Under the pieces are notes generated by a model, which saw only the letters and a program-made list of their open reading frames with translations, was not told where the DNA came from and did no database searches. From Ruditapes philippinarum (taxonomy: Eukaryota): a stretch of DNA of 64,000 nucleotides. The position numbers and the translations under genes are program-made. The stretch lies in contig NW_026864865.1 of NCBI RefSeq assembly GCF_026571515.1, positions 62,001-126,000 on the forward strand. Direction: 5' to 3'. Below, in pieces: positions 3,447 through 36,895 of this stretch (the stretch's first letter is position 1; each line of letters starts with the position of its first letter).

Positions 3447-3802
3447 CATGAGCTAGCTCAGGGTGATCTTTTAGGATCATTGAATGTCCGTCGTATGTCG
3501 TCCGCCGTCAGTCCACAGTTGTTTGTTAACACTCCACTCTAGCGGTCACAATTTTGCCTCAATCATCATCCAACTTTGTCAGGATGCTTATCTAGATAAG
3601 AGCTCGAACGGGTTTGAACAAAGGTCATCTTGGATGAAAAACTAGGTCACATGAACTAAAAATAGAAAAACCTTGTTAACCCTCTAGCGGTCACATTTTT
3701 GCCTCAATCATCATCCAACTTTGTCAGGATGCTTATCTAGGTAAGAGCTCGAACGGGTTTTAACAAAGGTCATCTTGGATGAAAAACTAGGTCACATGAA
3801 CT

Positions 3803-5108
3803 AACAAGAGCACCGCTAGGCGGAGCATTATATGCCCGAAAGTGTTTTTTTTTCTTTTCTAAGGATGAAGCATTTGTAAGACATTACATAAATTAAATAA
3901 AGTATTACCTCCTTCAAACAGCAATCCTCCTATAAAGTTTGAATATTGTGGGCCAAATGGAACTTCAGTTATGCTCTGGAAACTGTTTTTAGTTTTGAGG
4001 TAATAGCTACCTTGAACTTTGACCGTGTGACCCCAAAATCAATAGGGGTCTTCTACCCAATATGAACAATCATCCTATGAAGTTTCAACACTATGGGCCA
4101 AATAGAAAGTAAGTTATGTTCTGGAAACTTTTTTCAGTTTTAAAGTAATAGTGACCTTGACCTTTGACATTGTGACCCCAAAATCAATAGGGGTCTTTAC
4201 CCAATATGGACAATCATCCTCTGAAGTTTGAATATTGTGGGACAAATAGACCTTAAGTTATGCTCCGGAAACTGTTTTCAGTTTTAAAGTAATAGTGACC
4301 TTGACCTTTGACCTTGTGACCCCAAAATCAATAGGGGTCTCCTACCCAATATGGACAATCATCCTATGAAGTTTGAACACTGTCAGCCAAATGGAACTTA
4401 AGTTATGTTCCGGAAACTGTTTTCAGTTTTAAGGTCATAGTGACCTTGACCTTTGACCTTGTGACCCCAAAATCAATAGGGGTCTTCTACCCAATATGGA
4501 CAATCATCCTATGAAGTTTGAACACTGTCGGCCAAATAGAACTTAAGTTATGCCCTGGAAACTGTTTTCAGTTTTAAGGTCATATTGACCTTGACCTTTG
4601 ACCTTGTGACCCCAAAATCAATAGGGGTCTTCTACCCAAAATGGACAATCATCCTATGAAGTTTGAACACTGGCGGCCAAATGGACCTTAAATTATGCTC
4701 CGGAAACTGTTTTCAGTTTTAAGGTCATAGTGACCTTGACCTTTGACCTTGTGACACTAAAAATAAAAGGGGTCTTCTACCCAATATGGACAATCATCCT
4801 ATGAAGTTTGAACACTGTGGGCCAAATGGAACTTAAGTTATGCTCCAGAAACTGTTTTCAGTTTTAGGGTCATAGTGACCTTGACCTTTGACCTTGTGAC
4901 CCCAAAATCAATAGGGGTCTTCTACTCAATATGGACAATTATCCTATGAAGTTTGAATGTTGTGGGCCAAATGGAACTTAAGTTATGCTCCGGAAACCAA
5001 ATTGCTAACGGACGGACGGACAGACGGACGGACGGATAGACAGACGGACGGACGGACGGACGCCAGGGGGTATAACATAATATGCCCGAAATTCTTTCGG
5101 GCATATAA
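3803..5108 (-). mobile_element. Second, unrelated HINE nested in the first; about 8 x 145-bp tandem units
   Basis: subTIR TATATGCCCGAA at ~3829 and hairpin TATGCCCGAAattctTTCGGGCATA at ~5081-5105; (GACG)n at 5008-5062; terminal stem-loop GCACCGCTAGGCGGAGC; unit starts 4031/4176/4320/4465/4610/4755/4900; inserted in an A-run without TSD. Confidence 0.85.
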
Positions 5109-8100
5109 AAATAGAAAAACCTTGTTAACCCTCTAGCGGTCACATTTTTGCCTCAATCATCATCAAACTTTGTCAGGATGCTTGACTACGTAATCTAGGG
5201 GTCACATTTTTTGACTTAATCATCATCAAACGTGGTCAGGATGCTTGACTAGGAAATTGCTCCGTTGAGTTCGAACATGGGTCATTCAGATGAAAAACTT
5301 GGTCACAAGAGCTAAAAAAAGAAAAAACCTTGTTAACACTTTAGTGGTCTCATTTTTTACTCAATTATCATCAAACTTGGTCAGGATGCTTGTCTAGGTT
5401 ATTGCTCGGATGAGTTCGAACATGGGTCATCGCGGATAAAACAATTAGGTCACAAGAGCTAAAAATAGAAAAACCTTGTTAACACTCTAGCGGTCACAAT
5501 TTTGACTCAATTATCACAAAACTGGATCAGAATGCTTGCCTAGGTAATTATTCGGACGAGCTCGAACATGGGTCATCTCGGATGAAACACTTGGTCACAG
5601 GAGGTAGATAAAAATTGTTAACACTCTAGTGGTCACATGTTTGACTCAATTATCATCAATCTTGGTCAGGATACTTGTCTAGGTATTTGCTCAGATGAGT
5701 TCGAATATGGGTAATCTCGGATGAAAAACTAAGTCACAGGAACTAAAAAAAGAAAATTCTTGTTAAAACTCTAGTGGTCACATTTGTGACTCAATCATCA
5801 TCAAACTTCGTCAGGATGCTTGAATGGAAAATTGTTCCGTTGAGTTCGAACATGGGTCATCCCGAATGAAAAACTAGGTCACATGAGCTAAAAATAGTAA
5901 AATCTTGTTAACACTCTAGTTGCTACTGGTTTGTTCCAAATATCCTGGAAAATGGTCTGAAAGTTTGTTTTGATGATTTTTAGGTCAAGTTCGAATATGG
6001 ATCACCTGGGATCAAAACTTTGGTCACACCGCCCAAATATGGGAAAACCTTGTTAATACTCCAGTGGTCACATCTTTGACTCAATTATCATCAAACTTGG
6101 CCAGGATGCTTGTCTAGGTTGTTGCTCGGATGAGTTCGAGGATGGGTCATCTCGGATAAAAAAACTAGGTCAAAGGAGCTAAAAATAGAAAAACCATGTT
6201 AACACTTTAGCGGAACATTATTTTACTCAATTATCATCAAACTTGGTCAGGATGCTTGGCTACGTAATTTCGCGGACGAGCTCGAACATGGGTCATCTCG
6301 AATCAAAAACTAAGTCACAGGAGCTAGATAAACATTGTTAATACTCTACTGGTCACATGTTTGGCTTAATTATCATCAATCTTGGTCAGGATGCTTGTCT
6401 AGGTATTTGCTCGGATGAGTTCGAATATGGGTCATCTCGGACATAAAACTTGGTCAGGATGCTTGTCTAGGTTGTTGCTCGGATGAGTTCGAAGATTGGT
6501 CATCTCGGATGAAAAACTAGGTCACATTAGCTAAAAAAATAAAAAAATATTGTTAACACTCTAGTAGCTACTATTTTTATCCGAATATCATGTAAATTGG
6601 TCTGAAAGGTTGTTTTGATGATTTCTAAGTCACGTTCGAACATGGGTCATCCCGGTTGATAAACTAGGTCACACCGCCCAAATTTGGAATTGTTGACACT
6701 CTAGTGGTATTTTTTTTTTTGACTCAAATATCATCAAACTTGGTCAGGATGCTTCTCTAGGTAATTTCTTGGACGAGTTTGAACATGGGTCATCTCGAAT
6801 GAAAAACTAGGTCACAGGAGCTAAAAATAGAAAAATCTTGTAAACACTCTAGTGGCTACTGTTTTGATAAAAGTATCATGGAAATTTGTCTGAAAGTTTG
6901 TGTTGATGATTTCTAGGTCAGGTTCGAATATGGGTCACCTGGCGTCAAAAATTAGGTAACACTGGTCAAATATGGATAATCCTTGTTAACACTCTAGTGG
7001 TTACATTTTTGACTCACCTGTCCAGAAACTTATTCAGGATCCTTATCTAGGTAATTGTTCGGATGAGTTCGATGGGTCAGGTGAGCGATCTAGGGCCATC
7101 TTGGCCTTCTTGTTTATGATTCACCACAAAAGTAGAAAATTGTATACGGTTTTACAAAGATTGGTACGTTTTTATTATTCATAATTCATCAAACTAGAAA
7201 ATTTGTATTTAGTTTTAAGAAAGATTTGATTGTTATTATTATTGATAATTTGAATATTTCAGTTTAAATATTGAAGATATTGAATGTCTTTTTATCATAG
7301 AATAAACGAGGGGTTATCCAAAATAACGTAAACTTTTGGACGACTTCACACGGCCGCCAAATTTTGTAAATCATAATATTATATAAAAAGAAAACGAACA
7401 GAACATTCAATTAACAACAAGATAGAGATATACTATTCTGAGTACAAATTTCAAGCACGCCATATGATTCTTCTTAAGAAACGCAAATCACAATTCAAGA
7501 AAGAAATGAGAAAATCACAAAATGAACCCACAATAGTTTGATATACTGATGCTATTATGCCAAAGTTTGGCATAATATGAATGATGCGATTTAATTACAA
7601 CAAAATTCATAGTGCGTTGTTTCTAGTTTGGAAATGTCGTTAACAGACATGCGGGAAATCAGTAGAAGTTTTCAGTTCTGTCATTATAATGTACAAATAT
7701 TACAATACACGCTAAGGATGATTGATAAAACAAAAAGGGAATATCCGGAGAACAAATAAACTAACCGGTAGGTTTCTGACGACAAGGGACATCAGGTCGT
7801 GTAAGAAAAACACAACAGGACTTGACAAAAGTGACGTAAATTTTCGATGCACTTCATACGACGATTGAGATTGAAGATCAGAGTTAGCCGTTAGGCACCA
7901 ATCGGATATCATTAAGCAATTTAAAAATCTAATGCCGTTGAAGTTAATTTTGATATATCGATAACTTGGTATATGTCTCCAGTATTATAATATATAATTA
8001 TCATAGCAATTCTTCATACAGTGTGTTCAGTTTGTTGAAAACATTCGTTGCAGATTTTTCTTAAGTTGTGTACTCTTTCAAACCCTTAAGATAAAGAAAA

Positions 8101-9195
8101 CGTTTACACTACCTTTAAAAGCAATGCTATGCATACAATATATATGAATAAGCGTGTATTCTCTGGACATGGCTCCTGTGTATTTTGCCATATATTCATC
8201 CATGAAGAAACATAAAAACCATAGGAAATGCAGTTATGATCCCTTAAGGATTTATGTGAAGTAATAGTAATGGTTTCACATTGTATGACCAGCAGTAGTT
8301 AACTACTTTATTTAAACCGTAACTGTTATCATCTTGTTTAACATGTACTTACTAAATTCGAAACAAAAATGCATCGGACGGTCTTTAATTAAAGAAAATA
8401 TTTCAAAATTAAGTATTTCATGCAGACAGAAAACTTACTGTAAACACGTATTTTTTAACTATACTGCAATTGTTCGAATAGAATAATACAGAAAAGTTGC
8501 TTATACAACAGAAACACTGTCCATATATAGTGTAACTTACTCAAACATTTATTATAATAATACAAGATACTAAGTTTAACATTCACAACAAACATTCGAA
8601 GAAAAAAGTGGTTGTAAAATTATTTTGAAACAATCACTCCCCGTTTACTAAACGCTTTGAAAATCGTCCGTTCATTATATAAACCGGAGGATGACGGAAC
8701 ACGATATTCACAGAAACAAAATTATTGTTATTTATTGTCAGCAGTAAGTTTTATTTTTAATCATTCTGTTTATAATCGATTATTATCAATTCAATAATAA
8801 TTATTGAATACAAGTACCCATTGCGTGTTTCTATCTGAAAATTACCGAATGACGGAGACGCATAGTTCGCATTAAATTGTTTAACTGGAGTATGTAACAA
8901 GTATACATCTCATGTGCCACTTGTTAACCGCAGTTTGCTGAATAATGCCAGTGTTGTCAATGTATTGCATTTCAGATCGTACATAGTTCTAAAGGGTTAA
9001 CGATGTGATAAAAATGCAAGGAAAAATATATTTCTTTACCTTTTTTTTCAAAGTTTGCTGATACGATATGATTCATTTAGTTGCATACTTAATAATGTAT
9101 ATATTTATACTACTTTTTTTCTTTAAATCATACAAATCAACAGTAAAACTATACAAATAATGAAAACATTAGTCAATAAAGATGTCCATACATAC

Positions 9196-9280
9196 TTGCC
9201 ATCTGAATGGTATCCCCAGGAATATTGGCCTACGCCCGGTAGAAGATTGTCAGGATAGTCTTTTGGCACTACACCAATAG
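9196..9280 (-). CDS. Host gene SPRY exon ((A)IGVVPKDYPDNLLPGVGQYSWGYHSDG)
   Basis: ttctAG acceptor, GTatgt donor; 85 bp, phase 1 to 2; motif resembles the SPRYD3/RanBP9-type 'IGLVP.DY....PGW...S.GYH.DDG'. Confidence 0.9.
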
Positions 9281-9677
9281 CTAGAATATAAATATTATAC
9301 TACACGTTCTTTTTTATTTTGTTTAAGTAACGGAAGTAAACATTTCAATTTAGATTAAGAAGTGTTAATAAAAACTAATCTAACTTTTCATTTATGGTAA
9401 AAAAAATCTATTTAAAAAAGAAATAACCATGAACAATATTTGAATTAAAATGACAAAAAGTCTGGACATAACATTGGAAGGAAAAATAAGTTATGTAAAA
9501 TATAATGTTTTTAATGTATATACATAAAATGTAACAAGAGAATAATTGCCGTAGTAGCAAAGATCGTAATGACGTGATCGTTTGTTGATATGAGTCATTA
9601 GGAAATACATATTGAAAATGTACAAACTGACTTTACACGCCGGGTGAATATTTTAACAATAAGTATATTAATGTTAC

Positions 9678-9790: not shown

Positions 9791-10280
9791 CTGTAAAAAT
9801 AAACGTGAAACCATATTATTGTAATGCGTACATTTGTTACAAGTCTAAAGAAAGAATGTAATAGTTAATTATTCTGATTGCATTTGAAATTATTGTATGG
9901 CAGGTGTTTTAAACCATGCATTTTCGCTGGTATATCAAGTATCGTTACTTTTTAGTATTTTCTTTTTTTAATATGATGAAAATGTTACGTTGGTTATTTT
10001 ACAAGTTAATATAAATTGATGATGATTATCTTGTCATAATAATTCTTCACGATGATTAATTAAATTTGTAATGTAAACCTGATAATAGTATTTGTATAGC
10101 AATACCTTATGTCTATATTATTCAATAAAAAAAGAAATAAATATATAACTATAAACTCGGTATTGCTATTTTCCTGTTTAGAGCTTATATAATTAGATAA
10201 CGTATATCATATACATTTTCATATCACTTTTAAACATAACTTTGTATAATCATGTGAAATTTCTAAATCGCAACATAAAT

Positions 10281-10503
10281 GAATTTTATGTGTCATAAAA
10301 TTATTTATATGCAAGACAACATAATTTCTTAATATCATTCACTTTTGTTTTCTGTAAATCCGCATACATCATATACACTGCAGATAGAGGTCCGCATACC
10401 GGAGTTTCGTTACCGACAAATAAACGGTGCATTTATCATGTTTATAATTAGCCTACGTCACTTCGCGTACCCCAGTGAACAAAGAAACTCGCATTTGCTT
10501 TTC
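10281..10503 (+). repeat. Ngaro terminal repeat A1
   Basis: Near-identical to 23960-24173 (few substitutions, one ~9-bp indel). Confidence 0.95.
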
Positions 10504-10718: not shown

Positions 10719-10813
10719 ATGCCAACAACAAAGGTCTTGTTATATGGTCATTCATTTGTGTCTCATTTAAAACTTTTCATTCGGAATGAACATGATCTTT
10801 CGTATTCATTTAA
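10719..10813 (+). pseudogene. Ngaro SGNH hydrolase, N-terminal part (MPTTKVLLYGHSFVSHLKLFIRNEHDLSYSF)
   Basis: ATG at 10719; block-I nucleophile motif G-H-S; joins in frame (SYSF-N-LDPAHY) to 17447 when the Kolobok and one TTAA are removed. Confidence 0.88.
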
Positions 10814-12308
10814 GGTACATCAAACTTGTGAATGTGCTACTCCTCAACATTAAATGGCAGTTGCTGAATTGCAAAATAGAGAAGAGTATTGAGTAAAAAA
10901 AGTTTAATTTTAATAAATATATAGGGATATGTCATCATTGGAGTAACTTATTTATTCAAAAATTAAAATATGACAGTGTTGCAAAAGTTTGAAACTGAAA
11001 ATTACACACATACTGCTATGTCAAAATTTGGTTTAATTACTAAGTATTAGATACAAATTCTTTCATAAACATTAAGTCAATATATCAAATTAGTGCACCC
11101 AAATGTTAAATTTCGGTTAAATAACCTCCTTTACGTATTCCAAACTTTTCACGTGCTTCGGCATATATTTTTGACCCGCCATTTTATCAAATGTGTCTGT
11201 TTTTTCGTCGTTTTTTCCCAAAGGATATTCTTCTTATGCTTCGCTTTTTTAAATAAATTAAAACTGATTAATATTCCCATGAACAAAAATATTCATACAC
11301 CATACCTAAATACACAGAATTTCATTTCGATCGCTTTATACCTGACATAGTAATATCTTTCTTGTATTTATTTACATTTTTCGGCTTTCTGTTGACCGCA
11401 TAACGAAAGGAAGTAAAAAATATTCATACACTGAAGTAGACCTGACCTGAAAGATCGGGTAATTTTGGCGCATATTAAGGAAAATGACATTTCTTTTATT
11501 GTTTTGTTTTCGTCTTTGTTAAAAAATATCAATATAACAAACGTATTTCAAATACACGCATTATATCATGGAACTTTGAACAATCGCGTACGTTCTTTTA
11601 ATTCCGTACAATTGGGCGGATATGGATTTCGTATGGTTACCCCAATGTCGTGCGCGGTACGATAACTATAGTTTGTTAGAATGGGTACCAACTAATTAAA
11701 CATGGCGGAATTGTAGACACGTTGTGGCGGAAAATCTTGTTTTCAACTTGTATTGAGTTATTACCGGTAAGATCAGATGTATTAAGTATAATTTATACAC
11801 TGGTACTTTATTCACTTTCTTTATTCCATAAATTGTTATACCGATCGGCCAAGTTGTACGATGATTTAGCATTTACAAATAAGTAACTTTCGTTTTCATT
11901 CAACAAAATGTAAACAAAAACAACAGGTTCTCGAATGCCCTGTAAAAACAATTTTATGAATTGTATTTTATTTCTTCTGAATAATTATGCAAGTGTAATA
12001 TTATAATTAAGTTTTGAAGGTAAGTAAGCCCGAAATCTGTATTGTTTTACAAAAATATTTTTCAAACTAATGAAGCGTGAAATGACATGAATGAAAGTGG
12101 ATATACAAGTAACGCGCTATGGTGTACTGATGTGCTCCAAATTCCTGGAATTTAATTTTTAAATATATTTTATGGAATTTATTTCAATTGTTGTGTCTGT
12201 GTATTCTTTAATTTGGAAATATTTTATACTTGTATAACTTGTGGTGAACATATAGCTTGAAAATAAAGGAAATATTGTAGTGGCACAAGAAAGTTTTAAT
12301 CCACCAGG

Positions 12309-14877
12309 ATGGGTAATAAAAGAAATCAGAAAGGGAAAAGACAAGTTTTTAATAAGGCCACTGGAATTCATAGTTTGAAATATAGAAGGAAAATTGTCAT
12401 TAAAGATGAAAAATTGAGAAGAAAATTTAGGAATATTAAACATGTGGACCCATTCTATATTAGGCAGAAAAAACAAGGTTTGAAATTTACACTTAGTAAA
12501 ATTATTATTCAGAGAGCTAGAAAATTCAAATGTTTGCTCGATAAAGAAAAAGAAAGACTGTATATAACATCATTGAAAGATAATTTAGAAGGTAGTAGAA
12601 TCATTAACATGCATAAACTTAAAAATCACATTTTAGAAATAACTTCACATGCCGCTCTATGCACTGAAGCTCACATGAAAGCCCTTTCAAATGACAATGT
12701 TATTGTCCTGGAAAGTGAGAAAAGGAACGGTTTTTATACCATCATCACCTGTAAATGCCAAGGATGTGGTAAGACATTTGAACTGGAAAATAGTGATAAG
12801 TTTGGATATACAAATATGGTTGATATCAATGTTCGTTCAGTTTGGGGTAGCATGGTAACAGGAGGAGGTTGCTCTTCGCTCAATGAGTGTTTTGGAAGTA
12901 TAGGAATTCCAGGCATTACTGAAAAAAAGTACTCTTCAATTGAGAATGAGATTGGACATATGTGGAAGTCCCTTCTTGATGAAGAACTTGTGAAAGCAGG
13001 TCAGGAAGAGCGTGCATTGGCAGAGGAAAATGACGAATATTTTCAAGGTATTCCAGCAATAACTGTTATATGTGATGGAGGCTGGAGTAATCGAAGTCAC
13101 AAACATAGCTACAATGCCATGGCTGGAGTTGCTGTCGTTTTCGGGGCTAGAACAAAGAAACTTCTGCATGTAGGTATCAGAAATAAAATTTGTTACATAT
13201 GTAGCCGTGCTGAGACTGTAAATGAACCATGCCACTAAATGCCTTAGATCTAATTTAGAACGTTTAATATCTGAAAAGCCACATTATAAAGGAAAAGGTA
13301 AACTCATGAGAAATAACATTAGAAGAATTTGTTCTGGAGTAAGATGCGCTATTGTAATGCGAAGTTCTGAACCCAATAAAATGACAGCAATTAAAAAACT
13401 TAAACAGGATATACGGAATGCCGGGAGACATGTCCTTGGCTTACATGATTTATGTTCCACAGATTTTTGTAAAAATAAGGAGAAAGATACAGACATAACA
13501 AAATCAAATGATAATAAAATGGAAAATAGCAATAATGATGAAGAAGATATCATAATAAGCCAATGCGAGTACTGGACTGATTCTGTAAAAAAATATTCTG
13601 AAAGTGAAATTGAAATGTTAAGAAAGGGCGGTAAGACAATATCACCGAAAAATTTTAATATTGAAGAGTTGTTAAGAGACATTTTTCTATTTCTGAATCG
13701 TCTATCTGAAAAGGCAAACCGTTTGATTGGTAACTTTACAAGTAATTTAGCCGAGTCCTGGATGAGCATTAAATGTAAATTTGAAGGGGGTAAAATGTTC
13801 AATAAATGCTTCCGTGGTTCATTTTACGCAAGATGTTATGGTGGAGCGTTGAGGTCTTTGCTAGGTCCAGCATGGTCACCACAAGTTTACAATCAACTTA
13901 CAGGTAAACGCCCTGACAGAGTTTTTATTAACACTTATAGACAAAGGTTTGTACGCTACAGATGTACCAAACGTGCCAAAGGTAGTGAAATAAACAGGAA
14001 CAAAAGGAAATTGAAGAAAATGAAAGCATCTGTTGAAAGCAGCAGTAAGAAAGCAAGAAAAGAATATGGCGAAACTGTGCTGCAAGATACAGCTGATATC
14101 AGTCCATCACAATTAAAAAAGGAATGTGATACGTTTTATAAATCAACAATATCTACATGCAATAGTAAATTAATTGAACAGCATACACGTGGTCAGTCAA
14201 GTAATATTAACTGGTTTGCTGAAAGAAAGAAAAGACTCACAAGTTCTGTATTTGGAGAAGTGATGTCAAGATCACAAAATAATAACCGTCCCAATTTAGT
14301 GAAAAGGCTTTTGTATTCCAACTTTAAAGGAAACATGTATACTTTGAAAGGGTTAAGTGAAGAGGATAATGCAAGAATTGAATACATTAATTTGAAAGAA
14401 AAAGAAGAAAATCTTAAATACAAAATTGATATTCCGGGTCTAATTGTTGACAAACTGAATCCTTATTTAGCAGCCTCCAGCGATGGTGTCGTAGTTGGAT
14501 CCAAAGGTCCTGAAGGTCTCATTGAAATTAAAACTTTATTACAGAACAAAAAAGCAATGATCAAAGAATCAGCAGAAAATGATAAAGCCTTTTGTTTGTC
14601 AGTGCAGAATGGCATTATTCAACTGAAAAAAAATCATAAATATTTTTATCAAATACAAGGTCAGATGAATATTATGAATTTCAAATGGTGTGATCTAATA
14701 ATTCGAAGAGTAAATCCACATGATATGTTTATTCAGCGCATATACTGTGATACAGAATTATGGAGAAATGTTATGATTCCCAAATTAAAGGCTTTCTATT
14801 TCACCCACATGCTACCTGAATTAGCAGTTCCAAGACATGGTACTCTATCTGGAATAAGAAAACCTGAATTACCATGG
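12309..14877 (+). pseudogene. Kolobok DDE transposase fused to a YqaJ/lambda-exonuclease (PD-(D/E)XK) domain, main exon; internal deletion and frameshift at ~13225-13235
   Basis: CxxC motif (CKCQGC), first Asp in ITVICDGGWSNRSHKHSYNA, RNKICYIC, NHATKC, Glu in TSNLAES; exonuclease motifs TRGQS..W..ER..RLTSS, PYLAASSDG, LIEIK, YFYQIQGQM; donor TGG|GTatgt at 14878. Confidence 0.88.
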
Positions 14878-15058
14878 GTATGTTCCCCATAAATGTAATA
14901 CTCATTTTTTATAATAACAATGTTTTTGTTTTTTTCAGCATATTTACATGTGCTTACATATATATCATCATATATAATAAATTACCATGTATAATAATAA
15001 AAATATATTTATTGTAACTTGTATCTTTTGTGTAATCCTTCATTTTTATATTTTACAG

Positions 15059-15216
15059 TTTTGTGGTACATCCTGCAAGAGATCAGAGAAAAAGAACTGT
15101 AAGAGAATTGAAGGTGACAAATTGGACTAAAAAGACTCACATACTCAGATTAAGACAGACACAGATATTTACATTGCAACCCCATTAATACCAACACCAA
15201 CACAATCAAGTAAAAG
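15059..15216 (+). pseudogene. Kolobok ORF linker exon (one in-frame TAA at 15128)
   Basis: ttttacAG acceptor and AAAG|GTgatt donor; phase 0 to 2 exactly bridges the exonuclease exon and the Tudor exon. Confidence 0.65.
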
Positions 15217-15943
15217 GTGATTTATTTTAATGTATATATAACTATATATAATTAAGATCTTTAAAGAATTCTGTTAAATAGGAAATATTACCAATTTGCA
15301 CTCTTTTAACAGCTGTAAATTTGTTTAGGAAATACCAATATGCAGAAAACATGAAAGTGTTCTTTAAAGGCAGGTGGTCTTAAGTAACAGGTAATTTTGT
15401 TTCTTACATTATGGAAAGGGACAGTTGAAATGTACTTTTTAAGTACAGTTGGTATCTAGCAGTATTAATGTTTAGATTGCTCTGTATACATGTATAAAGA
15501 AGTATTTTTAAATTTTTAATGATGTTTAGAATTTTCAATATACCCTTATTTGAATTTTATAATTTTTGAATGAAGCTGTTATATTAATTTATGTTCATGT
15601 ACTTTTTCACTGTGTACTGTAACACAAATGTTGACAAAATATTGTGCATTACATGCAATCCTTTCCTATCATGATGGTTATAAACATATATTATTGCCTT
15701 TATACACTATAAGCAACTGTAAATTGTTCTCAAATTAACTTTTGTTTACTATTTTTAAACATTAATTTGGCATAACATCCAAATATAATTTGGCATAACA
15801 TCCAAATAAATGAGCAAATTTAACTTGCAACTTTATTTTAAGTTTAAAAATGGCTAAAAATTATAAATATTTATTTCAGATTTTAAGTGCCTTCAACATG
15901 TATTTGAAAAGGATAGTTGATATTTTTTTATACAAATTTGCAG

Positions 15944-16178
15944 ATCAACACGTTTGAGAAAATTAAAATTCCTTGGAAGGAGAATCAACCACCAGTGGAC
16001 AGAATCAGATGGCTCTCTGAATTGGTACAAAGGCACCGTGCTTTCTGTTTCTTCTGGAAAAGACGGAAATCCTGATGCAGTATATGAGGTGCTATATGAA
16101 GGCGAAGACGCGTCATATGAAGTAGATTCTTTGATCAAAGACTATAATGAAGGCACCTTAACTTTCATAGATTTGTAA
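15944..16178 (+). CDS. Kolobok terminal exon encoding a Spindlin/Ssty-like Tudor domain
   Basis: tttgcAG acceptor, phase 2; FLGRRINHQW.E.DG...WYKGTVL...YEVLYEGED..Y...LIKDYNEGTL resembles the Spin/Ssty repeat pattern (G.R(I/V).H.W....W.G.VL...Y.I.YDG....Y...L..DY..GDL). Confidence 0.75.
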
Positions 16179-16730
16179 TGGTATACTTTATTTCTCTTCC
16201 AATTTACATTATACCATGTACTGTATGTTTTTATATTTAAAAATTGATTTTAAAAAATATTTAAATAACATTATGCATAATATCTTTTTAATGTTAACAT
16301 CATATTACAACAGCTTTGAATGTAATTAATCCTATATAATAATTTACAGTTTCTGATTTTATGGTTTTTATGTTTAATTAATTTTGCAAGAAGGTCATGT
16401 TTCAATTCATTTTAATGAATTATTACAAGAAGGAATATTATCCTGCTTATCTTATGGATTATTGCAGTAAATTTTTTTATAAGTAAGCCATGTCCATAAT
16501 AGTACACCATACTTAACCTTGCACTACTTTTGTGTACATGCTATGTAAACATTGGACTTAGATAATGCTGTGTTTACTGGCCTTATTGGAATATAAATTT
16601 TCAATTGATAAATAATTTTTTCAGGTAATGGAGATTCAGTGTCACTAAAATAGATGTTACTTTAAAAGTTTTCATTCATCATATCACATATTTATCATTG
16701 GAAGGAACATTATTTTGACATACAAGTTAC

Positions 16731-17229
16731 TAAGGGTGTAACGGTTTACCGGTATACCGATATATTGCAATATGAAAAAATAAATTTCGAACCGCGGTAC
16801 GATTTTTGGAAAACCGGTATTTTATAAAAATCATCATTTTCAATTAATTGCCTTCTAATTTTGTACAAATTCACATAAAATCTTTAATTGGCAAATTTTG
16901 TTGGCACCAACGTAAGATAAAAGTATCCGACAACTAGTACACTTGAAAGTCAATAAGCGGCCACATAATTTACATAAGCCGCCCAGATGTGAAAGGTCAC
17001 ACGCGACTAGTTTTGTTGATCAAATTGTGTGACACTACTTTCTATTTATTCCTTACATTTTTATTAAGTTTCTACTAAAAATATATACATATAATAATAA
17101 TATATAAATGTTACTCCATCTTTACATCAAAACATATACACGACAATACGTATTGCAATATATTGCAATACGCTTCAGCAAAATGGCAATATATTGCAAT
17201 ACAGTTTTTGCTGTATTGTTACACCCCTA
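16731..17229. mobile_element. hAT-type MITE inserted in the Kolobok 3' region
   Basis: 8-bp TSD CAAGTTAC at 16723-16730 and 17230-17237; TIR TAAGGGTGTAAC / GTTACACCCCTA; subterminal TATTGCAATA repeats. Confidence 0.9.
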
Positions 17230-17446
17230 CAAGTTACATGTGCTGCAAACTGATTCAGGTAAGGCTTTTGCTTTTATTTTATTTTTTTTTTATTTTTAGG
17301 CAATGTAACAGCTTCTTTATAGGAAAAGGATTAATGCCTCAACATTTTCCTTTTGAAATGTACCTCACAATACTTCAGTTGAAAGTTTTAATTTTTGACC
17401 TAAAATTTTCAACAAAACAATATGGCTGCCATTTGATGCACCTTAA

Positions 17447-17956
17447 TTTGGACCCAGCTCATTACATGGTGCAGTTTTCTGCATTCCCAGGATCAACCGT
17501 GTCGAAATTGGATCGAAGCAGCTTGTTGGAAATTGTGAAGGATTTTGAACCTGACATTGTGTTTTTAATGATAGGAACGTGTGACCTTTATCAAACAGGC
17601 AGTTACCCAGAACGTATAGCACAGGACATCTGCACTCTAACGAACAACTGCACAACGTGTACAAAGTGAAATATGTGGTCGTTCTACAAACATTACACAG
17701 AATACCCCCACGTGTTTTTTTTAAATATCCGGTGGACTGCATATCGTTTAACAGTCATGTTGACATATTCAACCATCATTTACATTCCCATTTGCCAAAA
17801 GGGTACTCCAGATTGTTGCGATTAAAAGGCTTTTGGACAGAAACAAGTCAACAGAGGGTATTTGCTGCAGACGGCACACACTTATCTCCCCTAGGGAACA
17901 GAAAACTGTACAACAATGTTAGAGCAGCCATTATCAGTGTAACAAAGGATTTATAA
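17447..17956 (+). pseudogene. Ngaro SGNH hydrolase, C-terminal part (one frameshift at ~17645)
   Basis: PG block II (FPGSTV), PDIVFLMIGTCDL block III, DGTHL block V followed by the G..KLY helix. Confidence 0.88.
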
Positions 17957-18092
17957 ATCAAGATACGTATATATTCCATACACTGCTAGATTTTCACTTT
18001 AAATGTCTTATCTCTTAAGGCTTATATTGTCTTTATCAAATCATTAATCATTAGGATTTGAAACTGTATGGCAATAGCTACATGTACATAGA

Positions 18093-18230
18093 AAATGTTT
18101 ATATTTTCTAGAGGCTTGCATACATGTACTAGCTTAAAATTCCACAAGGAAAGTTTATCATGTAAATGTTTATATTTTCTAGAGGCTTACATACATGTAC
18201 TAGCTTAAAATTCCACAAGGAAATTTTATC
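18093..18230 (+). repeat. Two-copy ~71-bp tandem duplication
   Basis: aaatgtttatattttctagaggctt.catacatgtactagcttaaaattccacaaggaaa.tttatc occurs twice. Confidence 0.9.
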
Positions 18231-18983
18231 TCATGATCCGTATTTTTCAGTTTAAGTATATGCATATTTTATTTCATTTCAGTGCAGTCATACAGCATTT
18301 ATTTATTATATCTTCTGATGTTCTAGATTCCCTCAAGGATTTATTTTACCTTTGGAATCTAATGATCCAGAACTTTTTAGTTAAGCACTATAGTAGGAGT
18401 GTTTTAGACGGACAATATTTCAGTACAGTTTATAAATTTGATGAGCCAGATTTTGCCCTTGGGCTGGTCCGATGTTCCAATATAGTAACAGATTATGCCT
18501 GATGGCGATGATTACATTTACTCTATAGTAACGGAGTATGCCTTATGGCGATGATTAACACTATAATAACAGTGTTGTGGTGCAGTATTTATAACAAGTG
18601 TATATATTTTTTGATGATCCAAATCAATTGATAGGCAATTTTTTCCTAATTCGGTCTGATGTTCTAAAAATGTTCTACTTTCTATTACAGGGTATATGTA
18701 TAATGTACATAACTCAAGAAATATAAAATATAATTATCAAATTTCGGGAACGACAAACATATATTAAAGTTAATATAATAATTTACATTAATTGTCATTG
18801 TTTTTACACAAATATCATATGAATCAATTGATACATCTTTGTAGTGGTACTGCTTTTTACTACTTATCAAATATACTGTATTATACATGAATATTCATAT
18901 AGTATACCTAAAGAGGGTTTTCTTTAATAGTCTTATAAGATATAAATTTGTTCTTTGTTTTAATTTTTTATAAATTTTTGTAG

Positions 18984-20090
18984 GTAAAACGGACCCGGTC
19001 AGGCATGAAGGCTAGTACAGCAGCCTCTGATAGCCAAGCTCAGAAAAGAAAATCAACTAAAATACAGACAAAACTGGGACAGAGAAACTCTTTCTCTACC
19101 AATGTTAAATCGCATTTAAAAACTGGAACTAAAATCGGTACAATTAATAGAAACAGAAGACCACCCCTCCCAGAAAGAAGGCTCAGAGTAAGAACCAATC
19201 AATGCCGGAAGACCCCACGGAAAATGATATCTCAGATGAAGTTGACCAAGAATCCTCAACTTTCTGTGATGGTTCAGATTCAGACATGGATGATGTCACT
19301 TTTAGTCAAATAACGGCAAATCACACAAATAATTTTTTTCAAAATGGTGGGTATGATGGCACTCTTCTAAACACGCCCATTTCTACCCCAATTTCCCCAC
19401 AGATTAACAAAAAATTAAAGAAAAAAATTTGGTCTGACACATACATTGATATGGCAGACCTTCTACCAATGCAAACCTCATCCACCAATACCAATCAATT
19501 TACGCTTCAAATAACGTAAGCCTACCCCCTCTCACAAACCCAGAAAATTTTTCAAAATTGATGATTGGACAACTGCCTTTCTACGATTTGTAGCTGTTTA
19601 TTCGAAAAAATTTCCATATTTAACAGCTGCACTGATGAAATATGCCGAAATAGTCAGGAATATAGCAACCTGTCGACAAGGACTGGCGTGGCAAACTTAT
19701 GACACGCAGTTCCGATTACTGGAATCCCAGATGGGCATGCCTTGGGATACGATGCATTACGAACTTTGGTTAAAAGCATGCACCGATCCACCTCCTTACG
19801 TACATTCAAATCCCCGGCCCTTTCGTTCAGAATTCTCATTAAATAGACACTGGAAAAAACCTAAACCTTCCCAACCCTTGTCAAAGTTTTGGCCAAATAC
19901 ATGCTGGCCTTACAATAGACAAGACTGCAGATCAACTAACTGCACATTACCCCATGTCTGTGGTTTCTGTAAAGGTACCCGTCATGCAAGTCAGTCCCAA
20001 TATCGAAACAGATCGCATGCAGCTCAATCCCTCCTCGGCCAAAACCAAGGGAAACAATCCAATTCACCAAACCACAGTCTGTCAAATATG
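18984..20090 (+). pseudogene. Ngaro gag-like ORF (frameshifted)
   Basis: KKKIWSDTYIDMADLL, DWTTAFLRFVAVY, LMKYAEIVRNIA...W.TYD.QFR...W.....ELW, Cys/His finger CWPYNRQDC...C...HVCGFC...H. Confidence 0.85.
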
Positions 20091-21654
20091 TACAAAAACA
20101 AGCTTCCAACACCCATTAAAATTCGACCCCTCATTTCCTTACAACAGGGTAATAGTGACATGAACTAGATAAAAAATGGTTTCCAAAAGGGGGTTCATTT
20201 AGGTTATATAGGCGATAGGTCAGCATGCGATATTAGAAATTTGAAATCTTGCATGGAATATCCAGAAATTGTAGAAAGAAAACTGGAAGCCGAGAAAAAG
20301 CATCACATAATTGTTGGTCCATTTGAAGTATCTCCCTTCGATAATTTAAAAATTAGCCCAATAGGAGTTGTTGAAAAGAAAACACCAGGTCAATACCGTC
20401 TTATTCATCATTTAAGTTACCCAACAGGTTTCTCAGTAAACGATTTTATAGATCCTTCGTTATCAACAGTAAGTTACACATCATTTGATGATGCAGTCAA
20501 CCTCCTCATTAAGTTGGGCCCTGGTTCCCTGTTCAGTAAAACAGATATTGCAGATGCCTATAGATTAATACCCATTCATCCGGATGATTATAGCTTGTTA
20601 GGCTTCAAATTCAAAGACCAAATTTAATTTGGCAAATGTCTGCCTTTGGGAGCTTCCAGCAGTTGTGCCATTTTCGAACGGTTTAGCTCTAGCCTTGAGT
20701 GGATCGCAAAGAAGAAATTGCTAATTCCACATATAATACACATTTTGGATGACTTTCTCATTATGGGCCCTCAAAAGACAAATACATGTAAGCTCCATTT
20801 AGATAATTTTTTATCCATGTGTAAATCGATTCGGGTACCAATTTAATCTGAAAAGACCCAACAACCATGTAATGTCATTACATTTATGGGCTTAGAATTA
20901 GACTCTGTGCAAATGATGGCCAGACTACCACAAGATAAGCTTATGAAATTAAGACAGTTACTATCAGTTTATATCAATTGTAGGAAAATAACTCTTAAAG
21001 ACATGCAAAGCTTAATTGGTCTTCTAAACTTCTTTTGCTATGTAGTCACACCAGATGTTTTCTTAGAAGATTAATTGATCTCACTAAAAAGGTCATTAAA
21101 CCAAACCATCGCATTACACTTAATGCTGAAAGCCGAAAAGATATTAAAGCTTGGCAAATATTTGTGGAATAATTAATGGAAAAAAATTACTGCTAGATGG
21201 AAAATGGTTGACAGATGAACAATTAAGTTTGTTCACTGATGCATCCGGAAGTTTGGGGTTTGGAGCAATATTTGGCAACATTGGTTCTATAATTTTTGGC
21301 CTGAAAGTCTATCAAATATGGCCATTACCTATAAAGAAATGTTCCCTGTAGTAATAGCCATTGAAGTTTCGGGGGCAAATGTTATGCCATAAATGCCTTG
21401 TTCTTCATTTTGATAATGAAGCTGTTGTATATATTTTAAATAAACAAACTTCCAAAAACCCCTTAGTAATGCATTTAGTTAGACGCTTTGTATTACTTTG
21501 TATGAAATATTATATTCTCATTAAAGCTGTCCATATCAGTGGTAAATTGAATTATCTCTCTGGTCTTTTATCACGTTTACAGATAAACCAGTTCAAAACA
21601 GTGGCACAACAGCACATGGATCCGGATCCCACAGACGTGTCCGATCTCATTTAG
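20090..21654 (+). pseudogene. Ngaro reverse transcriptase / RNase H (stops and frameshifts)
   Basis: LPTPI, GPF..ISPIGVVEKK..YRLIHHLSYP, KTDIADAYR, CLPLGASSS, ILDDFL; RNase H LFTDASG, DNEAVV, HISG..N...LSR. Confidence 0.93.
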
Positions 21655-21669
21655 ACCAAACGGTTCTAG

Positions 21670-22569
21670 ACCTCTTGAATAATTCTTTGTCAATTTCAAC
21701 CAAGCACTCATATGAGCATTCATTAAAACATTTTTTTCACATTTATACAAAGTACCTACCCGGGAAAAGCACCTTTCCCTGTCTCTGAGTATAAAACTGC
21801 TCAATACATAACATACTGTTTCGAAGAAGGTTATCGCTAAATTACTATACGCACTAAAACATTAGCCATTGCTTACTTGCACAAAATCTATAAATATCAC
21901 AATCCTACAGACTCATTTGTCATTTCGAAAATGTTGTATTCAATAAGAACAACCTCTACCCCGTCTGACAGTAGGCTTCCAATAACTATCCCTATTTTGA
22001 AATCAATTATCCAAGCCCTCGACACAATAGTGCCCTCATCATATGACAAGCTCTTGTACAGGGCTATTTTCATAGTTTCTTTCTTTGGCCTCTTAAGGAT
22101 TGGTGAAATGACACTCACACCAACAGGTTCTACTAATGTCATACAAAGTAATAACCTCACTTTCCACAGATCAAAGTCCACCTATAAATACAATAAAGCA
22201 ACGATTTATATGTCAAAGTACAAACATTTTGATGGTAAAACCTCCACAATTCTACTGAAAAAGAATACCTATCTTACCATTTGTCCGGTTAACGCATTAA
22301 AAAGTTACCTAAAGAGAAGGTCAGCTCGGCCTGGTCAATTATTCATATGTAAAAATGGCCGTACATTATTCAGTTCTACTTTTCGCTCATTGTTAAGAAA
22401 CTGTGTTGAACATATAGGTTTGGATCCAATAAAATATACACCTCACTCATTCAGAATAGGTTACGCCACACACGCTTTCAACTGTCAATATACTCAATTA
22501 CAAATCCAGAAATTAGGCCGCTGGAAATCCAATGCTTTCAAAGGATATATTCGCCCTGTCAATTTATAA
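21670..22569 (+). pseudogene. Ngaro tyrosine recombinase (catalytic domain open from 21877; N-terminus disrupted)
   Basis: DSRLPIT, FFGLLRIGE (R), CPV, HSFRIG (HxxR), GRWKS...Y (W, Y). Confidence 0.93.
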
Positions 22570-22644
22570 TACGAAAAAGTTTATGCCATAAAAAAAGCTA
22601 GTGCCATCATACTACCTACAGTGATTGTTTTGTTGTTAGCAATA

Positions 22645-23310
22645 TCCTGACTGGCTAAGGCAGCAGGATATTTAATATTGAATGTTAAGTAATACTGACA
22701 TTGATTACTTGTGTTCACAGTTACCTGACTGGCTGAGGCAGCAGGAAATTTGTACATATGAACTTTTTTCAACATAAAACTTTTACTCTTATAAACTTGT
22801 TCCTGACTGGCTGAGGCAGCAGGAAATCTGTACATATGAACATTTTTCAACATACAACTTTTACTCTTATGAACTTGTTCCTGACTGGCTGAGGCAGCAG
22901 GAAATCTGTACATATGAACGTTTTTCAACTTGCAATTTTTATTCTTGTAAACATGTTCCTGACTGGCTGAGGCTGCAGGAAATCTGTACATATGAACGTT
23001 TTTTCAACTTGCAATTTTTACTCTTTTTAACATGTTCCTGACTGACTTAGGCAGCAGGATATTTGTACGTATGAACAATTTTCACAAATTATATCTATTA
23101 CTCTAATCATTTATATTTCCTGACTGGCTTAGGCAGCAGGATATCTGTACATATATGAAAAGTCTTCCAATGTATCATCCTTTTAACTCTAATTCATAAT
23201 TTTCTGACTGGTTAGGCAGCTATATATCTGTACATATTTATGACAGTTAATATTTTTACATTTAACTGCTTGTTATTCATATTTTCATGACTGGCTTAGG
23301 CAGCAGGATT
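22645..23310. repeat. Nine-copy array of a 24-bp imperfect palindrome (TCCTGACTGGCTNAGGCAGCAGGA) with 54-60-bp AT-rich spacers
   Basis: Core starts at ~22646, 22724, 22802, 22880, 22958, 23037, 23119, 23203, 23286; period 78-84 bp. Confidence 0.93.
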
Positions 23311-23796
23311 TTAGAACATCAAAGTGTTAATTGATACTTTTACATTTTGTTCCTCATACCTTTTAAAATCATTTTTCTAAATAATCTGATCTTAATTGTT
23401 ATACAGGACTAAGTTTGGCAGAAGGCATAATTGTTAAAATATAGTTTATAAACAACAAGCATTTTATACAAATTTTATGTAAGTAAGACTACAATTTTAC
23501 TAAGTGTATATCTAAGATCAGAACAAATTATGTTTGACTCCGACAGCTAAAGCTACAAGATTATATATATTTCATGTTACATTCACTGACTAGCCTAACT
23601 AACAGTTGGCTGTTAATATTTGAGTTATACAACATATTAAAGTTAATTTGTCTCATGTTTCTTAAATCTAATATGGCCAATTTATTTTTATTACTTTGTC
23701 AATTTTATTAACAATGTTTACATTATGTATATACTACTACCAAAAACACAATTTTGTCTGGCAGATATGGGTTAATTTATTAACAACCCATTTATG

Positions 23797-24173
23797 GCGG
23801 TTTTTACCTGCCAGATATGTCGAAAAATTAACACATTCTTATTCATATTATACTTATGGCTTAATAAAGCCCAAAAATCAATCTTATAACATGGTTGTTT
23901 CTTATTTCCCAATACAAGCTTCAATTGAGTTTTTGGTGGTTGTCGCAGTTAATATAAATGTATTTTATGTTTCATAAAATTATTTATATGCAAGACAACA
24001 TAATTTCTTAATATCATTCACTTTAGTTTTCTGTAAATCCGCATATATCTTATACACTGCAGATAGAGGTCCGCATACCGAAGTTTCGTTACCGACAAAT
24101 AAACGGTGCATTTATAATAAGCCTACGTCACTTCGCGTACCTCAGTGAACAAAGAAACTCGCATTTGCTTTTC
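23797..24173 (+). repeat. Ngaro internal B1-A2 junction repeat
   Basis: B1 23797-23959 abuts A2 23960-24173 (..tataAAT|Gtattttatg..), followed by ccagcctcccaccac. Confidence 0.93.
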
Positions 24174-24314
24174 CCAGCCTCCCACCACAATTATAAATTG
24201 CATTACAGTCTTGCAAATAAATAGTTTTGTAACTTCATGCTAATTTCTTATCTAGTCATATACTGATTGTTAATATTGATTTATCATGTTCTTTCTTGTT
24301 GTTATTTGGTGCTT

Positions 24315-24477
24315 GCGGTTTTTACCTGCCAGATATGTCGAAAAATTAACACATTCTTATTCATATTATACTTATGGCTTAATAAAGCCCAAATAGTAAT
24401 CTCATAACATGATTGTTTCTTATTTCTCCATACAAGCTTCAACTGAGTGTTTGGTGGTTGTCGCAGTTAATACAAAT
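24315..24477 (+). repeat. Ngaro terminal repeat B2
   Basis: 163-bp direct copy of 23797-23959. Confidence 0.95.
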
Positions 24478-24587
24478 AAATGTGTCAGATTTTAATAATG
24501 TTTTATGTTAAATAAAGGCTTTATTTGTATTTGCATAAGAGTACCTTAAAAGATATATATAAAACTACATTTAAGTTTTATACATAC

Positions 24588-34488: not shown

Positions 34489-36895
34489 ATGATGTTAATT
34501 GAACAGTTTATGTTTTAGTTGTATATGCAATGAAGCATTAGTGTAAATCAAATTCCTTCAAATAAAGTGTCTCACAAACTGATATGTTCACATAGATAGT
34601 TAAAATATTCTTGATGTAGTATCAATGGTAAAATACGACCTCGTGTATCATTATATTGATTCAAATGGTGCGTATTTTTAAAACTTCCGGGTTGATACTC
34701 TATTTTATATTCACATTTGTTCACGTTCATATTGTTTATATCAGAGCAATACTGTAATTTTAAAAACAGAACTTTTGCAAGAACTTGAAAAGTTATAATT
34801 TGAAATCTTATTAAACATAAATATAAACAAGAGGGCTAAGATCGCTCACCTGACCCATCGAACTCATCCGAACAATTAACTAGACAATGTGCAATTTTAT
34901 TGAACATTGATATAAACAAAAGGGCCAATATGGCCCTATATCGCTCACTTGACCCATCGAACTCATCCGAACAATTACGTAGACAAACATTCGTGAGTCA
35001 AAAAAATGCGACCACTAGAGTGTTAACAAGGATTATCCATATTTGAACAGTGTGACCTAGTTTTTCCCCAGGTGACCCATATTCGAATTTGACCTAGAAA
35101 TCATCAAAACAAACTTTCAGACCAATTTCCAGGATACCTTGATCAAAACGGTAGCCACTACAGTGTTTACAAGATTTTTCTATTTTTAGCTCCTTTGACC
35201 TAGTTTTTCATCCGAGATGATCCATGTTCGAAATCATCCGAAAAAATACCTACGCAAACATCATGACCAAGTTTCATGATAATTGAGTAAAAAATGTGAT
35301 CACTATAGTGTTAACAAAATTTTTCTATTTTTAGCTCCTGTGACCTAGTTTTTCAAGTGAGATGACCTATGTTCGAACTCATCCGAGCAATTACCTAGGC
35401 AAGCATCCTGATTAAGTTCGATGATATTTGAGTCAAAATTGTGACCACAAGAATGTTAACAAGGTTTTTCATTATTTGGGCAGTGTGATCTAGTTTTTAA
35501 CCCCAGGTGACCCATATTCGAACTTGACCTAGAAATCATCAAAACAAAATTTCATCCAATTTACAGGATATTTGGATCAAAACAGTAGCAACTAGAGTGT
35601 TATCAAGATTTTTTTTAATTTTTAGCTACTGTGACCTAATTTTTCATCCGAGATGACCCATGTTGAAACTCATCCGAGCAATTACCTAGACTAGCATCCT
35701 GACCAAATTTGATGACAATTGAGTCAAAAATGTGACCACTAAAGTGTTGACAAGGTTTTTTCTATTTTTATCTCCTGTGACCTAGTTTTACATCCGAGAT
35801 GACCCATGTTCGAACTCATCCGAACTAATGTCTTGACAATCATCCTGACCAAGTTTTATGACAATTGAGTCAAAAATGCGACCGTTCTAGTGTAAACAAG
35901 GTTTTTCTATTTTTAGCTCCTGTGACCTAGTTTTTCATCCGAGATAACCCATGTTCAAACTCATCCGAGCTATTACCTAGACAAGCATTCTGCCCAAGTT
36001 TGATGATTATTGAGTTGAAATGCGACCGCTAGAGTGATAACAAGTTTTTTCTATTTTTAGCTCCTGTGACCTAGTTTTTTCATCCGAGATGACCCATGTT
36101 CAAGGCCATTTGAGCTTTCAAGTTTAATGACGATTGAGGCAAAAATGTGACCACTAGAGTGTTAACAAGGTTCTATTTTAGCTCCGGTGACCTAGTTTTT
36201 CATCCGATATGACCCATGTTCGAACTCGTCTGAGCTATCTACTAGGTAAGCATCCTGACAAAGTTTGATGATGATTGAGGCAAAAATGTGACCGCTAGTG
36301 TTAACGAACAAGTGTGAACGGGCGAAAGACGACGGACGATGGACGAGCTAGCTCAGGCGGGCTAAAAAGACAACCAACATATCAAGTAATTTGATAAGAG
36401 ATTGGATATATAAAGAACATGATCATTGTCTATCAATTGAAATTAATTTGTAACAGTTATAACAAAATTTACTTCGGTACTTACTCAGTATATAAACATA
36501 CGAATAACTAAGCCTGCTTTGTAGGAAAAGTCGTTGTAGAGCTTAATAAGGCCAACAACAACACTAAGTATATACCTGTCGCATAATAAGTTTAAATAGC
36601 TAGTTTATACATCGATTTTTCGGCGTTAACAATTATACATCAACTAAATATGTTGAATATAAATCACTGATATAACTTAAGCCTTTAGAGCGAGCGAATG
36701 CTTATAGAAATCGCTGATAAAACTTTGCTAAACTTTGTTTTTTAAAGGGTACATATGTTGTTTTTTTATACTTTCGTCCTATTTTTATGACGATATTGTT
36801 ATCCTGAACTGATTATTTTGTGTTATAAACAAACGTCTGTTAAACTAACACATTATCCGCATACTGTCATCATCGGCCAAAGGTTGTTATAATCG
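34489..36895. repeat. Copy 1 of a locally duplicated non-coding segment (split by a HINE)
   Basis: 34489-34790 plus 36374-36895 are colinear with 41258-41855 plus 42172-42420. Confidence 0.85.
34825..36368 (-). mobile_element. HINE of the same family as 2927-7115, reverse orientation, about 9 tandem units
   Basis: aacaa..GGGCC..GGCCC..TCGCTCAC end, ~146-bp units (gtgacctagtttttcatccgagatgacccatgttcgaactc), (GACG) microsatellite, GAGCTAGCTCAGGCGGGCTaaaaa end. Confidence 0.85.

Follow-up and report, generated by a model that had tools for sequence, protein, structure and literature searches.

The 64-kb stretch analysed here (hereafter the window, in whose positions all coordinates are given) comes from the bivalve Ruditapes philippinarum (contig NW_026864865.1, positions 62,001-126,000) and contains an Ngaro retrotransposon whose SGNH hydrolase open reading frame (ORF) is the first of the element. 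Once a Kolobok DNA transposon inserted into that ORF is removed, the order is A1-SGNH-gag-RT/RH-YR-array-B1A2-spacer-B2, in which A and B are split direct repeats, RT/RH is reverse transcriptase with RNase H and YR is a tyrosine recombinase. The first-pass annotation, made from the sequence alone, had proposed this order, and it is borne out by the repeats, the ORF frames and the profile matches.

Layout of the window element

10272..10503, + strand: A1, the 5′ split direct repeat (232 bp, 92% identity to A2 at 23951-24173)
10719..10813, + strand: SGNH ORF, 5′ piece, with its own ATG; block I G-H-S at 10746-10754, catalytic Ser at 10752-10754; ends in the left TTAA
10814..17442, + strand: KolobokE DNA transposon inside the SGNH ORF (6629 bp), flanked by TTAA at either end and bounded by 11-bp terminal inverted repeats (10/11 matching); specific to this copy
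17447..17956, + strand: SGNH ORF, 3′ part, with block II Gly, block III G-T-C-D, block V D-G-T-H at 17870-17881 and the stop; frameshift near 17641
17957..19004, + strand: non-coding SGNH-gag spacer (1048 bp), which contains short tandem duplications of 71 and 43 bp; an acceptor-like site stands at 18983, 21 nt upstream of the start codon of gag
19005..20168, + strand: gag-like ORF, frameshifted, with a C-terminal CCCH/CCHC-type cysteine cluster; 39-41% to the intact gag of locus L005 and 53% to the gag half of protein P0077 (see below)
20004..21654, + strand: RT/RNase H, overlapping gag and YR, with several stops or frameshifts; RVT_1 match; 51% to L005 RT and 46% to L005 RH
21630..22569, + strand: YR, with R, HxxR, W and Y catalytic motifs present and the 5′ part disrupted; Phage_integrase match, E 9e-7
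22644..23321, + strand: tandem array of about nine 78-84-bp units, in the place that SGNH occupies in 3′-type elements
23797..24173, + strand: internal repeat block B1A2 (B1 23797-23959, A2 23951-24173), beginning at a conserved TGGCR motif
24174..24314, + strand: A2-B2 spacer (141 bp), with a conserved C-rich tract at its start
24315..24477, + strand: B2, the 3′ split direct repeat (163 bp, 94% identity to B1)

The element ends at ~24480, the end given earlier (22569) being only the YR stop, and repeat comparison within the window found no copy of the B repeat upstream of A1. The SGNH ATG lies 215 bp past A1, matching the distance first reported, and the two parts of the ORF give a conceptual read of 200 aa with no stop and with X at the Kolobok site and at the frameshift. 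A profile of 22 relatives, run against six frames of the window, matched three SGNH pieces (E 2e-8, 1e-19 and 4e-35) and nothing else in the 64 kb, in agreement with the earlier statement that no SGNH follows YR.

Assignment to Ngaro (order DIRS), likewise proposed at first sight, is supported by the split direct repeats with an internal block 3′ of YR, by the overlapping gag-like, RT/RNase H and YR ORFs on one strand and by the lack of a methyltransferase domain. No Pfam methyltransferase match was found in the window, and the RH end at 21654, within the YR frame, leaves no room for one; in the intact L005, too, RNase H runs directly into YR. The methyltransferase after RNase H that marks PAT-like elements, which otherwise share split direct repeats and a YR (available text of PMC4157794), is absent. 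By RT/YR the element groups (100/99) with elements of gag-RT/RH-YR-SGNH layout, in a tree without named Ngaro reference sequences. It departs from the described Ngaro arrangement in the hydrolase, which lies upstream of gag and not 3′ of YR. As gag, RT/RH and YR all carry stops or frameshifts, the window copy is dead. The heptamer ATAAATG is found at both ends of the element and again where B1 meets A2, and may be a recombination core; the gag of L005 resembles basidiomycete C3H1 clusters (Atlas), which we treat as a lead only.

Xenopus DIRS-53_XT and DIRS-54_XT, as described in the available part of PMC9210276, resemble the window element in their A1...B1A2...B2 repeats, gag, RT/RH and YR, in the lack of a methyltransferase and in an extra SGNH ORF, and their repeats (236 and 152 bp) are similar in size to those of the window (A 232, B 163 bp). 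Compared by description only, they differ from the window type, in which SGNH comes first among the ORFs, starts at an ATG of its own, overlaps no other ORF and lies 0.3-1.4 kb from gag, and in which an array follows YR. The same part of that source has the amphibian Ngaro hydrolase after YR, with no proven function, so that the earlier remark that described animal Ngaro elements carry SGNH after YR agrees with it. The group definitions in the available portions of PMC6681497, PMC7192593, PMC4157794, PMC3783388, PMC13465315, PMC12440569 and PMC8557442 come without a 5′ SGNH order, and we found no description of it in the literature searched, which did not cover Repbase, the founding papers or the supplements of PMC9210276. 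Because the SGNH family is present in Magallana gigas, curated entries may well have this layout without discussion of it.

SGNH before gag in other loci and in the host

A word-based homologue search with the block II-III piece gave no match, while the C-terminal SGNH piece retrieved 66 cluster representatives and an SGNH profile retrieved 74 proteins, mostly stand-alone and ~200-207 aa long. Named relatives come from Dreissena (seven near-identical loci in one cluster), Mercenaria, Ruditapes, Saccostrea and Magallana, and an Atlas cluster of relatives has Cnidaria as its commonest phylum. Viral contigs held no SGNH relative, and one weak RT match there (L006) came without any other Ngaro part. 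The Saccostrea (oyster) model P0077 has SGNH at 1-195 followed by the gag-like region that is 53% identical to that of the window; no longer SGNH-fused form was found among 7998 candidates, a weak negative since P0077 exists. An obligatory SGNH-Gag fusion of the P0077 kind was considered and rejected, there being no conserved donor at the SGNH end, and P0077 is counted for order only.

SGNH precedes gag in six other loci (L002, L004, L005, L021, L022, L024) as well as in P0077; these counts leave out two short SGNH contigs without RT or YR (L009, L010) and two gag-RT contigs without SGNH that are too short (L016, L017). Among four metagenome loci, L002 reads SGNH-gag-RT, L004 reads SGNH-gag, L003 ends after SGNH, and in L001 SGNH is followed by a gag start joined to a YR start. 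The sequence common to L001, L003 and L004 begins only 448-479 bp before the SGNH ATG, which locates the 5′ end of the element. L005 is host DNA that turned up in the assembly of a symbiont; its contig is circular, and the ORFs, all intact, are in the order RH-YR-array-1.36 kb-SGNH-gag-RT. Across 5′-type elements the SGNH-gag spacer measures 0.3-1.4 kb. Short tandem duplications follow SGNH in these elements, and the arrays after YR (window 22644-23321; L005:1821-2103; L023, L047, L050, L054) have units of ~50-100 bp that vary among families.

Copies elsewhere in the host species were judged from contigs of four of the 24 listed sequencing runs, two of DNA (X1, which may be the source sample, and X5, another sample from another study) and two of RNA; the contig, joint and depth results come from the best-supported rows, which alone are listed. 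The Kolobok-free junction, 10809 to 17443, is present in contigs of both DNA runs (depth 28.9 in X1 and 300.9 in X5), so that the insert-free copies which the first-pass annotation had suggested seeking do exist. The SGNH frameshift is missing in 25.9 of 25.9 depth in X1 and in 388 of 439 in X5, and because both DNA runs show the Kolobok-free junction without the frameshift, SGNH in first position is taken to be a family trait. Contigs of 1362 and 1037 nt pass directly from YR into the array, and depth over SGNH (30-39 in X1, 437-533 in X5) is no lower than over RT/YR (16-31 and 234-260). Two further joints in X5, 10234>24523 and 10263>24480, look like empty sites (window 10234-10275 and 24476-24523).

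Both layouts occur side by side in one assembly. Of 301 genomes searched, four gave SGNH matches, and the animal-contaminated G182 contained 21 YR matches on 20 contigs, all of which were mapped. SGNH lies directly after YR in eight of the 20 (L036, L048, L049, L051, L052, L053, L055, L060) and before gag in three (L021, L022, L024). Four others are cut upstream and show no SGNH after YR (L047, L050 and L054, with array, and L046, with 286 bp after YR), and four have no visible SGNH (L056-L059, only L058 complete). No element with both a 5′ and a 3′ SGNH was found among the 20 contigs. L021 and L022 are circles or tandem units of YR-array-B1A2-spacer-B2A1-SGNH-gag, with SGNH starting 218 and 195 bp, respectively, past the BA repeat that follows the spacer. 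Their counterpart L053 reads YR-SGNH-B1A2-spacer-B2A1-gag, and in L048, also of the 3′ type, the gag ATG stands 55 bp after A1. As a structural variant of Ngaro, the 5′-SGNH order is real, old and widespread, its origin being still unproven; the earlier suggestion of a lineage with its own gene order thus stands, as the other loci and the host contigs attest.

Several observations on these contigs are recorded in their own right. Bacterial assemblies G001, G182, G245 and G064 hold animal retroelement contigs, and P0028, named as a Thiodiazotropha protein, is located in an animal-type retrotransposon. L060 is a distant YR element whose 3′ SGNH groups near LINE (long interspersed nuclear element) esterases, perhaps a separate capture. 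A third SGNH position is pol-fused: in the YR elements at L093:4022-6883 and 7998-9395, L094:2322-5123 and L096:3282-6134, a pol ORF of 930-950 aa ends in SGNH; in L093, direct repeats are present and an ALOG-type YR follows downstream. The stretch between RT and SGNH in these three loci gave no Pfam match and is, by a motif, tentatively methyltransferase-like.

Start signals, predicted enzyme and nested features

The two types differ in how SGNH begins. In the seven members of the 3′ clade (the eight contigs listed above less L060), the ORF starts at a conserved splice acceptor: in 7/7 a CAG, preceded by a T-rich tract, stands at precisely 14 nt from the Gly codon of block I, on its 5′ side (CAG occurs at 1.5-2% of positions). 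The three closest members lack any in-frame ATG from which the SGNH domain could start. A conserved donor for this exon was sought and not found. By contrast, in all eight 5′-type ORFs examined an ATG precedes block I by 6-15 codons, and the CAG site is lacking. Upstream of gag, 5/5 of the first loci, from four families, have an acceptor-like site within 0-21 nt of the ATG (background 8-31%), at a threshold chosen after the sites had been inspected. Splicing to gag is no more than a lead; the donor scores use approximate base frequencies.

In a 136-row alignment the catalytic triad is nearly invariant among filled rows (Ser 95/98, Asp 111/117, His 114/121), as is the Gly. The family has the block I Ser, the block II Gly, the block V Asp-x-x-His and the SGNH fold. 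The block III residue is Asn in 102 rows, Cys in six, another residue in eight and a gap in 20. The window ORF has Cys here (codon 17580-17582), for which decay or a family trait had been offered as explanations. Because the nearest relatives, P0001 (54%) and P0002 (56%), also carry it, with the window and P0001 forming a clade at 99, the Cys is by sequence comparison a sub-lineage trait and decay is ruled out; the family as a whole has the Asn, and Cys is seen separately in P0023, P0052 and P0159.

The predicted structure of P0004 (pLDDT, predicted local distance difference test, 93.7) matches GDSL/PAF-AH folds with Z up to 19.6 and a root-mean-square deviation of 3.5 over 180 residues. Retroelement esterases with the SGNH fold and triad are known from the ORF1 proteins (ORF1p) of CR1/L2, RTEX and Penelope elements, and that of ZfL2-1 (PDB 4C1B) is active and binds acidic phospholipids, a membrane-targeting role being favoured (available text of PMC3905857). 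This zebrafish enzyme matches our family weakly (profile E 0.0025, Foldseek rank 48). An ORF1p esterase is a domain of a multi-domain protein, whereas the window type is a free ORF of ~200 aa, no closer to ORF1p than to cellular GDSL enzymes. By analogy with the LINE ORF1 esterase, for which such a role was proposed, the esterase here would likely serve membrane binding or lipid hydrolysis during particle assembly.

Two features were annotated within the insert.

12300-13238, continued at 13222-14892, + strand: Kolobok transposase, with Pfam Mutator-like and YqaJ matches and a lambda-exonuclease-like domain in the continuation
16731..17229, strand not assigned: high-copy miniature inverted-repeat transposable element (MITE) nested in the Kolobok, with an 8-bp duplication, joint 16720>17228 and much higher depth; other Kolobok copies are without it

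The TTAA duplication, the RR...YY termini and the lambda-exonuclease-like domain after the transposase agree with the KolobokE lineage as defined in the available part of PMC9587614. A short spliced-looking coding stretch after the nuclease ORF (window 15941-16179), over which RNA depth is raised in run X21, is possibly an extra exon or accessory gene. Elsewhere in the window, the arrays at 3537-7072, 35002-36305 and 40610-41162 have 145-bp and 132-148-bp units, presumably of the kind common in bivalve Helitron-derived repeats.

Origin of the two layouts

A concatenated RT/RH+YR tree (20 rows, LG+G4) places the 3′ type in a clade at 100/100 and the 5′ type, with the four upstream-cut elements lacking a visible 3′ SGNH, in another at 81/91, the two being joined at 100/99; a YR-only tree agrees (96, 94, 97). 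On these trees the carriers of the two types are sister clades. The SGNH tree (39 rows, the long-branch L061, L009, L063 and L060 left out) resolves a 5′ family (97/91), the 3′ type (100/99), LINE ORF1 esterases (100/99, two of the carriers verified as APE-RT LINEs) and pol-fused esterases (99/96), and from such a tree relocation cannot be separated from fresh capture.

SGNH lies on opposite sides of the repeat block, before B1 in L053 and after A1 in L021 and L022. In the seven elements with a visible A2 (three 5′-type, three 3′-type and one without SGNH), A2 is followed in 7/7 by a C-rich tract with 11-14 C among 20 nt (background <0.8% of windows). The B1 start bears TGGCR in 6/7, in both types (background 2-6%). 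Both motifs had been noticed before they were scored. The B1A2-spacer-B2 layout is likewise common to both types, the spacer between A2 and B2 being present in the relatives too. Because the edge motifs occur in both, the repeat block is most simply inherited, and SGNH would then most simply have crossed it or been gained anew.

We favour the first of these, with the window element read as a dead, Kolobok-interrupted Ngaro copy that has a stand-alone SGNH between A1 and gag and belongs to an old invertebrate clade, in which the esterase of a 3′-type ancestor likely moved once across the inherited repeat block; taken whole, this reading is probable, if far from secure. In the Ngaro cycle, the element is copied by reverse transcription, its ends are repaired from B1A2 and a circular cDNA is integrated by the tyrosine recombinase. 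The likely route was through a 3′-type spliced leader-SGNH RNA, whose reverse transcript would have become linked to gag-pol-YR when the enzyme switched templates; the product would have SGNH right after A1 with a start codon, which would account for its position, its ATG and the retained repeats. The full-length RNA of such an element would give the esterase first, with gag reached by splicing or by re-initiation across the 0.3-1.4-kb spacer.

Several results weigh against this reading. The RT-only tree leaves the 5′ type as a polytomy, and 5′-type monophyly is not among the starred groupings. The joint grouping of 5′ and 3′ esterases reaches only 61/65, and a grouping of the 5′ family with the LINE esterases is not rejected (approximately unbiased (AU) test, p 0.33). 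Polarity depends on Xenopus (3′) and on one long-branch outgroup, L060, whose SGNH groups elsewhere. L023 is a linear contig with SGNH 1.76 kb after YR, which we take for a collapsed circle because of a B1-like motif ~590 bp before SGNH, although this is not proof. A gag acceptor was found in only 1/4 of the later loci at the same threshold (3/4 at one point lower), neither type has a strong or conserved splice donor, and no splice joint is among the rows listed from the two low-depth RNA runs. Finally, no contig joining SGNH to gag in other copies of the host is among those listed.

Independent capture, in which the 5′ clade took its esterase from a LINE ORF1, PAT-like or Penelope element and the 3′ clade gained or kept another, non-orthologous one, is unlikely but the best placed of the alternatives. 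The four SGNH groups are each well supported with their relations open, and union of the 5′ family with the PAT-like esterases (AU p 0.32) is, like that with the LINE esterases, not rejected. Block I is G-H-S in the 5′ type and mostly G-D-S in the 3′ type and LINEs, and SGNH domains are carried by a number of unrelated retroelements in the same assembly and also by CR1, RTEX and Penelope elements (PMC3905857, as far as available). The best trees nevertheless join the 5′ and 3′ esterases (61/65, and 75 in a further SGNH tree), and with the carriers being sisters and no G182 element having both, one move is simpler than a gain plus a loss.

Alternatively, the 5′ position might be the ancestral one in this part of Ngaro, with the 3′ placement seen in Xenopus and the G182 3′ clade arising later, when the esterase turned into a spliced exon at that end. 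Divergences within the 5′ type go deeper than those within the 3′ clade, the RT-only tree does not resolve the 5′ type, and 5′-context rows are scattered over the whole mollusc SGNH tree. We nonetheless consider this polarity quite improbable, as the YR and concatenated trees make the types sisters and not nested (94; 81/91) and as the distant L060 also has SGNH after YR.

The permutation through the circular intermediate proposed in the first-pass annotation, which would mean that the circle re-opened between YR and SGNH and acquired new terminal repeats, fares worse still and seems very improbable. The cyclic order gag, RT/RH, YR, SGNH is indeed alike in the two types, a point illustrated by circular contigs (L005, L021, L022 and L053). 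However, a circle opened elsewhere leaves each gene on its side of the repeat block as long as no new repeats form, and permutation would require fresh A and B repeats to appear and the earlier ones to be lost; that the B1-start and post-A2 motifs and the B1A2-spacer-B2 layout are retained in the two types alike, with SGNH on opposite sides, therefore speaks against it. A chance neighbourhood or assembly artefact, with SGNH from another element or a tandem upstream copy, for which only the lack of a listed host contig joining SGNH to gag could be cited, is refuted by the absence of B before A1, by SGNH lying inside A1 and by the same order in six other loci, and deserves practically no credence.

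More tentatively, and with considerable doubt, we envisage two mirror-image designs of animal Ngaro elements that split early, one with gag first and a spliced 3′ esterase exon, the other with the esterase first and gag reached by splicing, the latter deriving from a retro-copied, spliced esterase RNA. The esterase, counting the PAT-like fusion to RT-RH-methyltransferase, would then be a repeatedly repositioned membrane-targeting module that in the 5′ type sits at the place of the retroviral matrix domain.

The 5′-SGNH order changes the textbook layout of Ngaro for molluscs and probably for other invertebrates. The multi-copy 'SGNH hydrolase genes' of bivalves (Dreissena, Mercenaria, Ruditapes, Saccostrea and Magallana) are likely retrotransposon ORFs, and circular or collapsed assemblies can make either ORF order resemble the other. 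The intact stand-alone esterases, together with the natural Asn/Cys pair at block III, provide material with which to test what the esterases of retroelements do.

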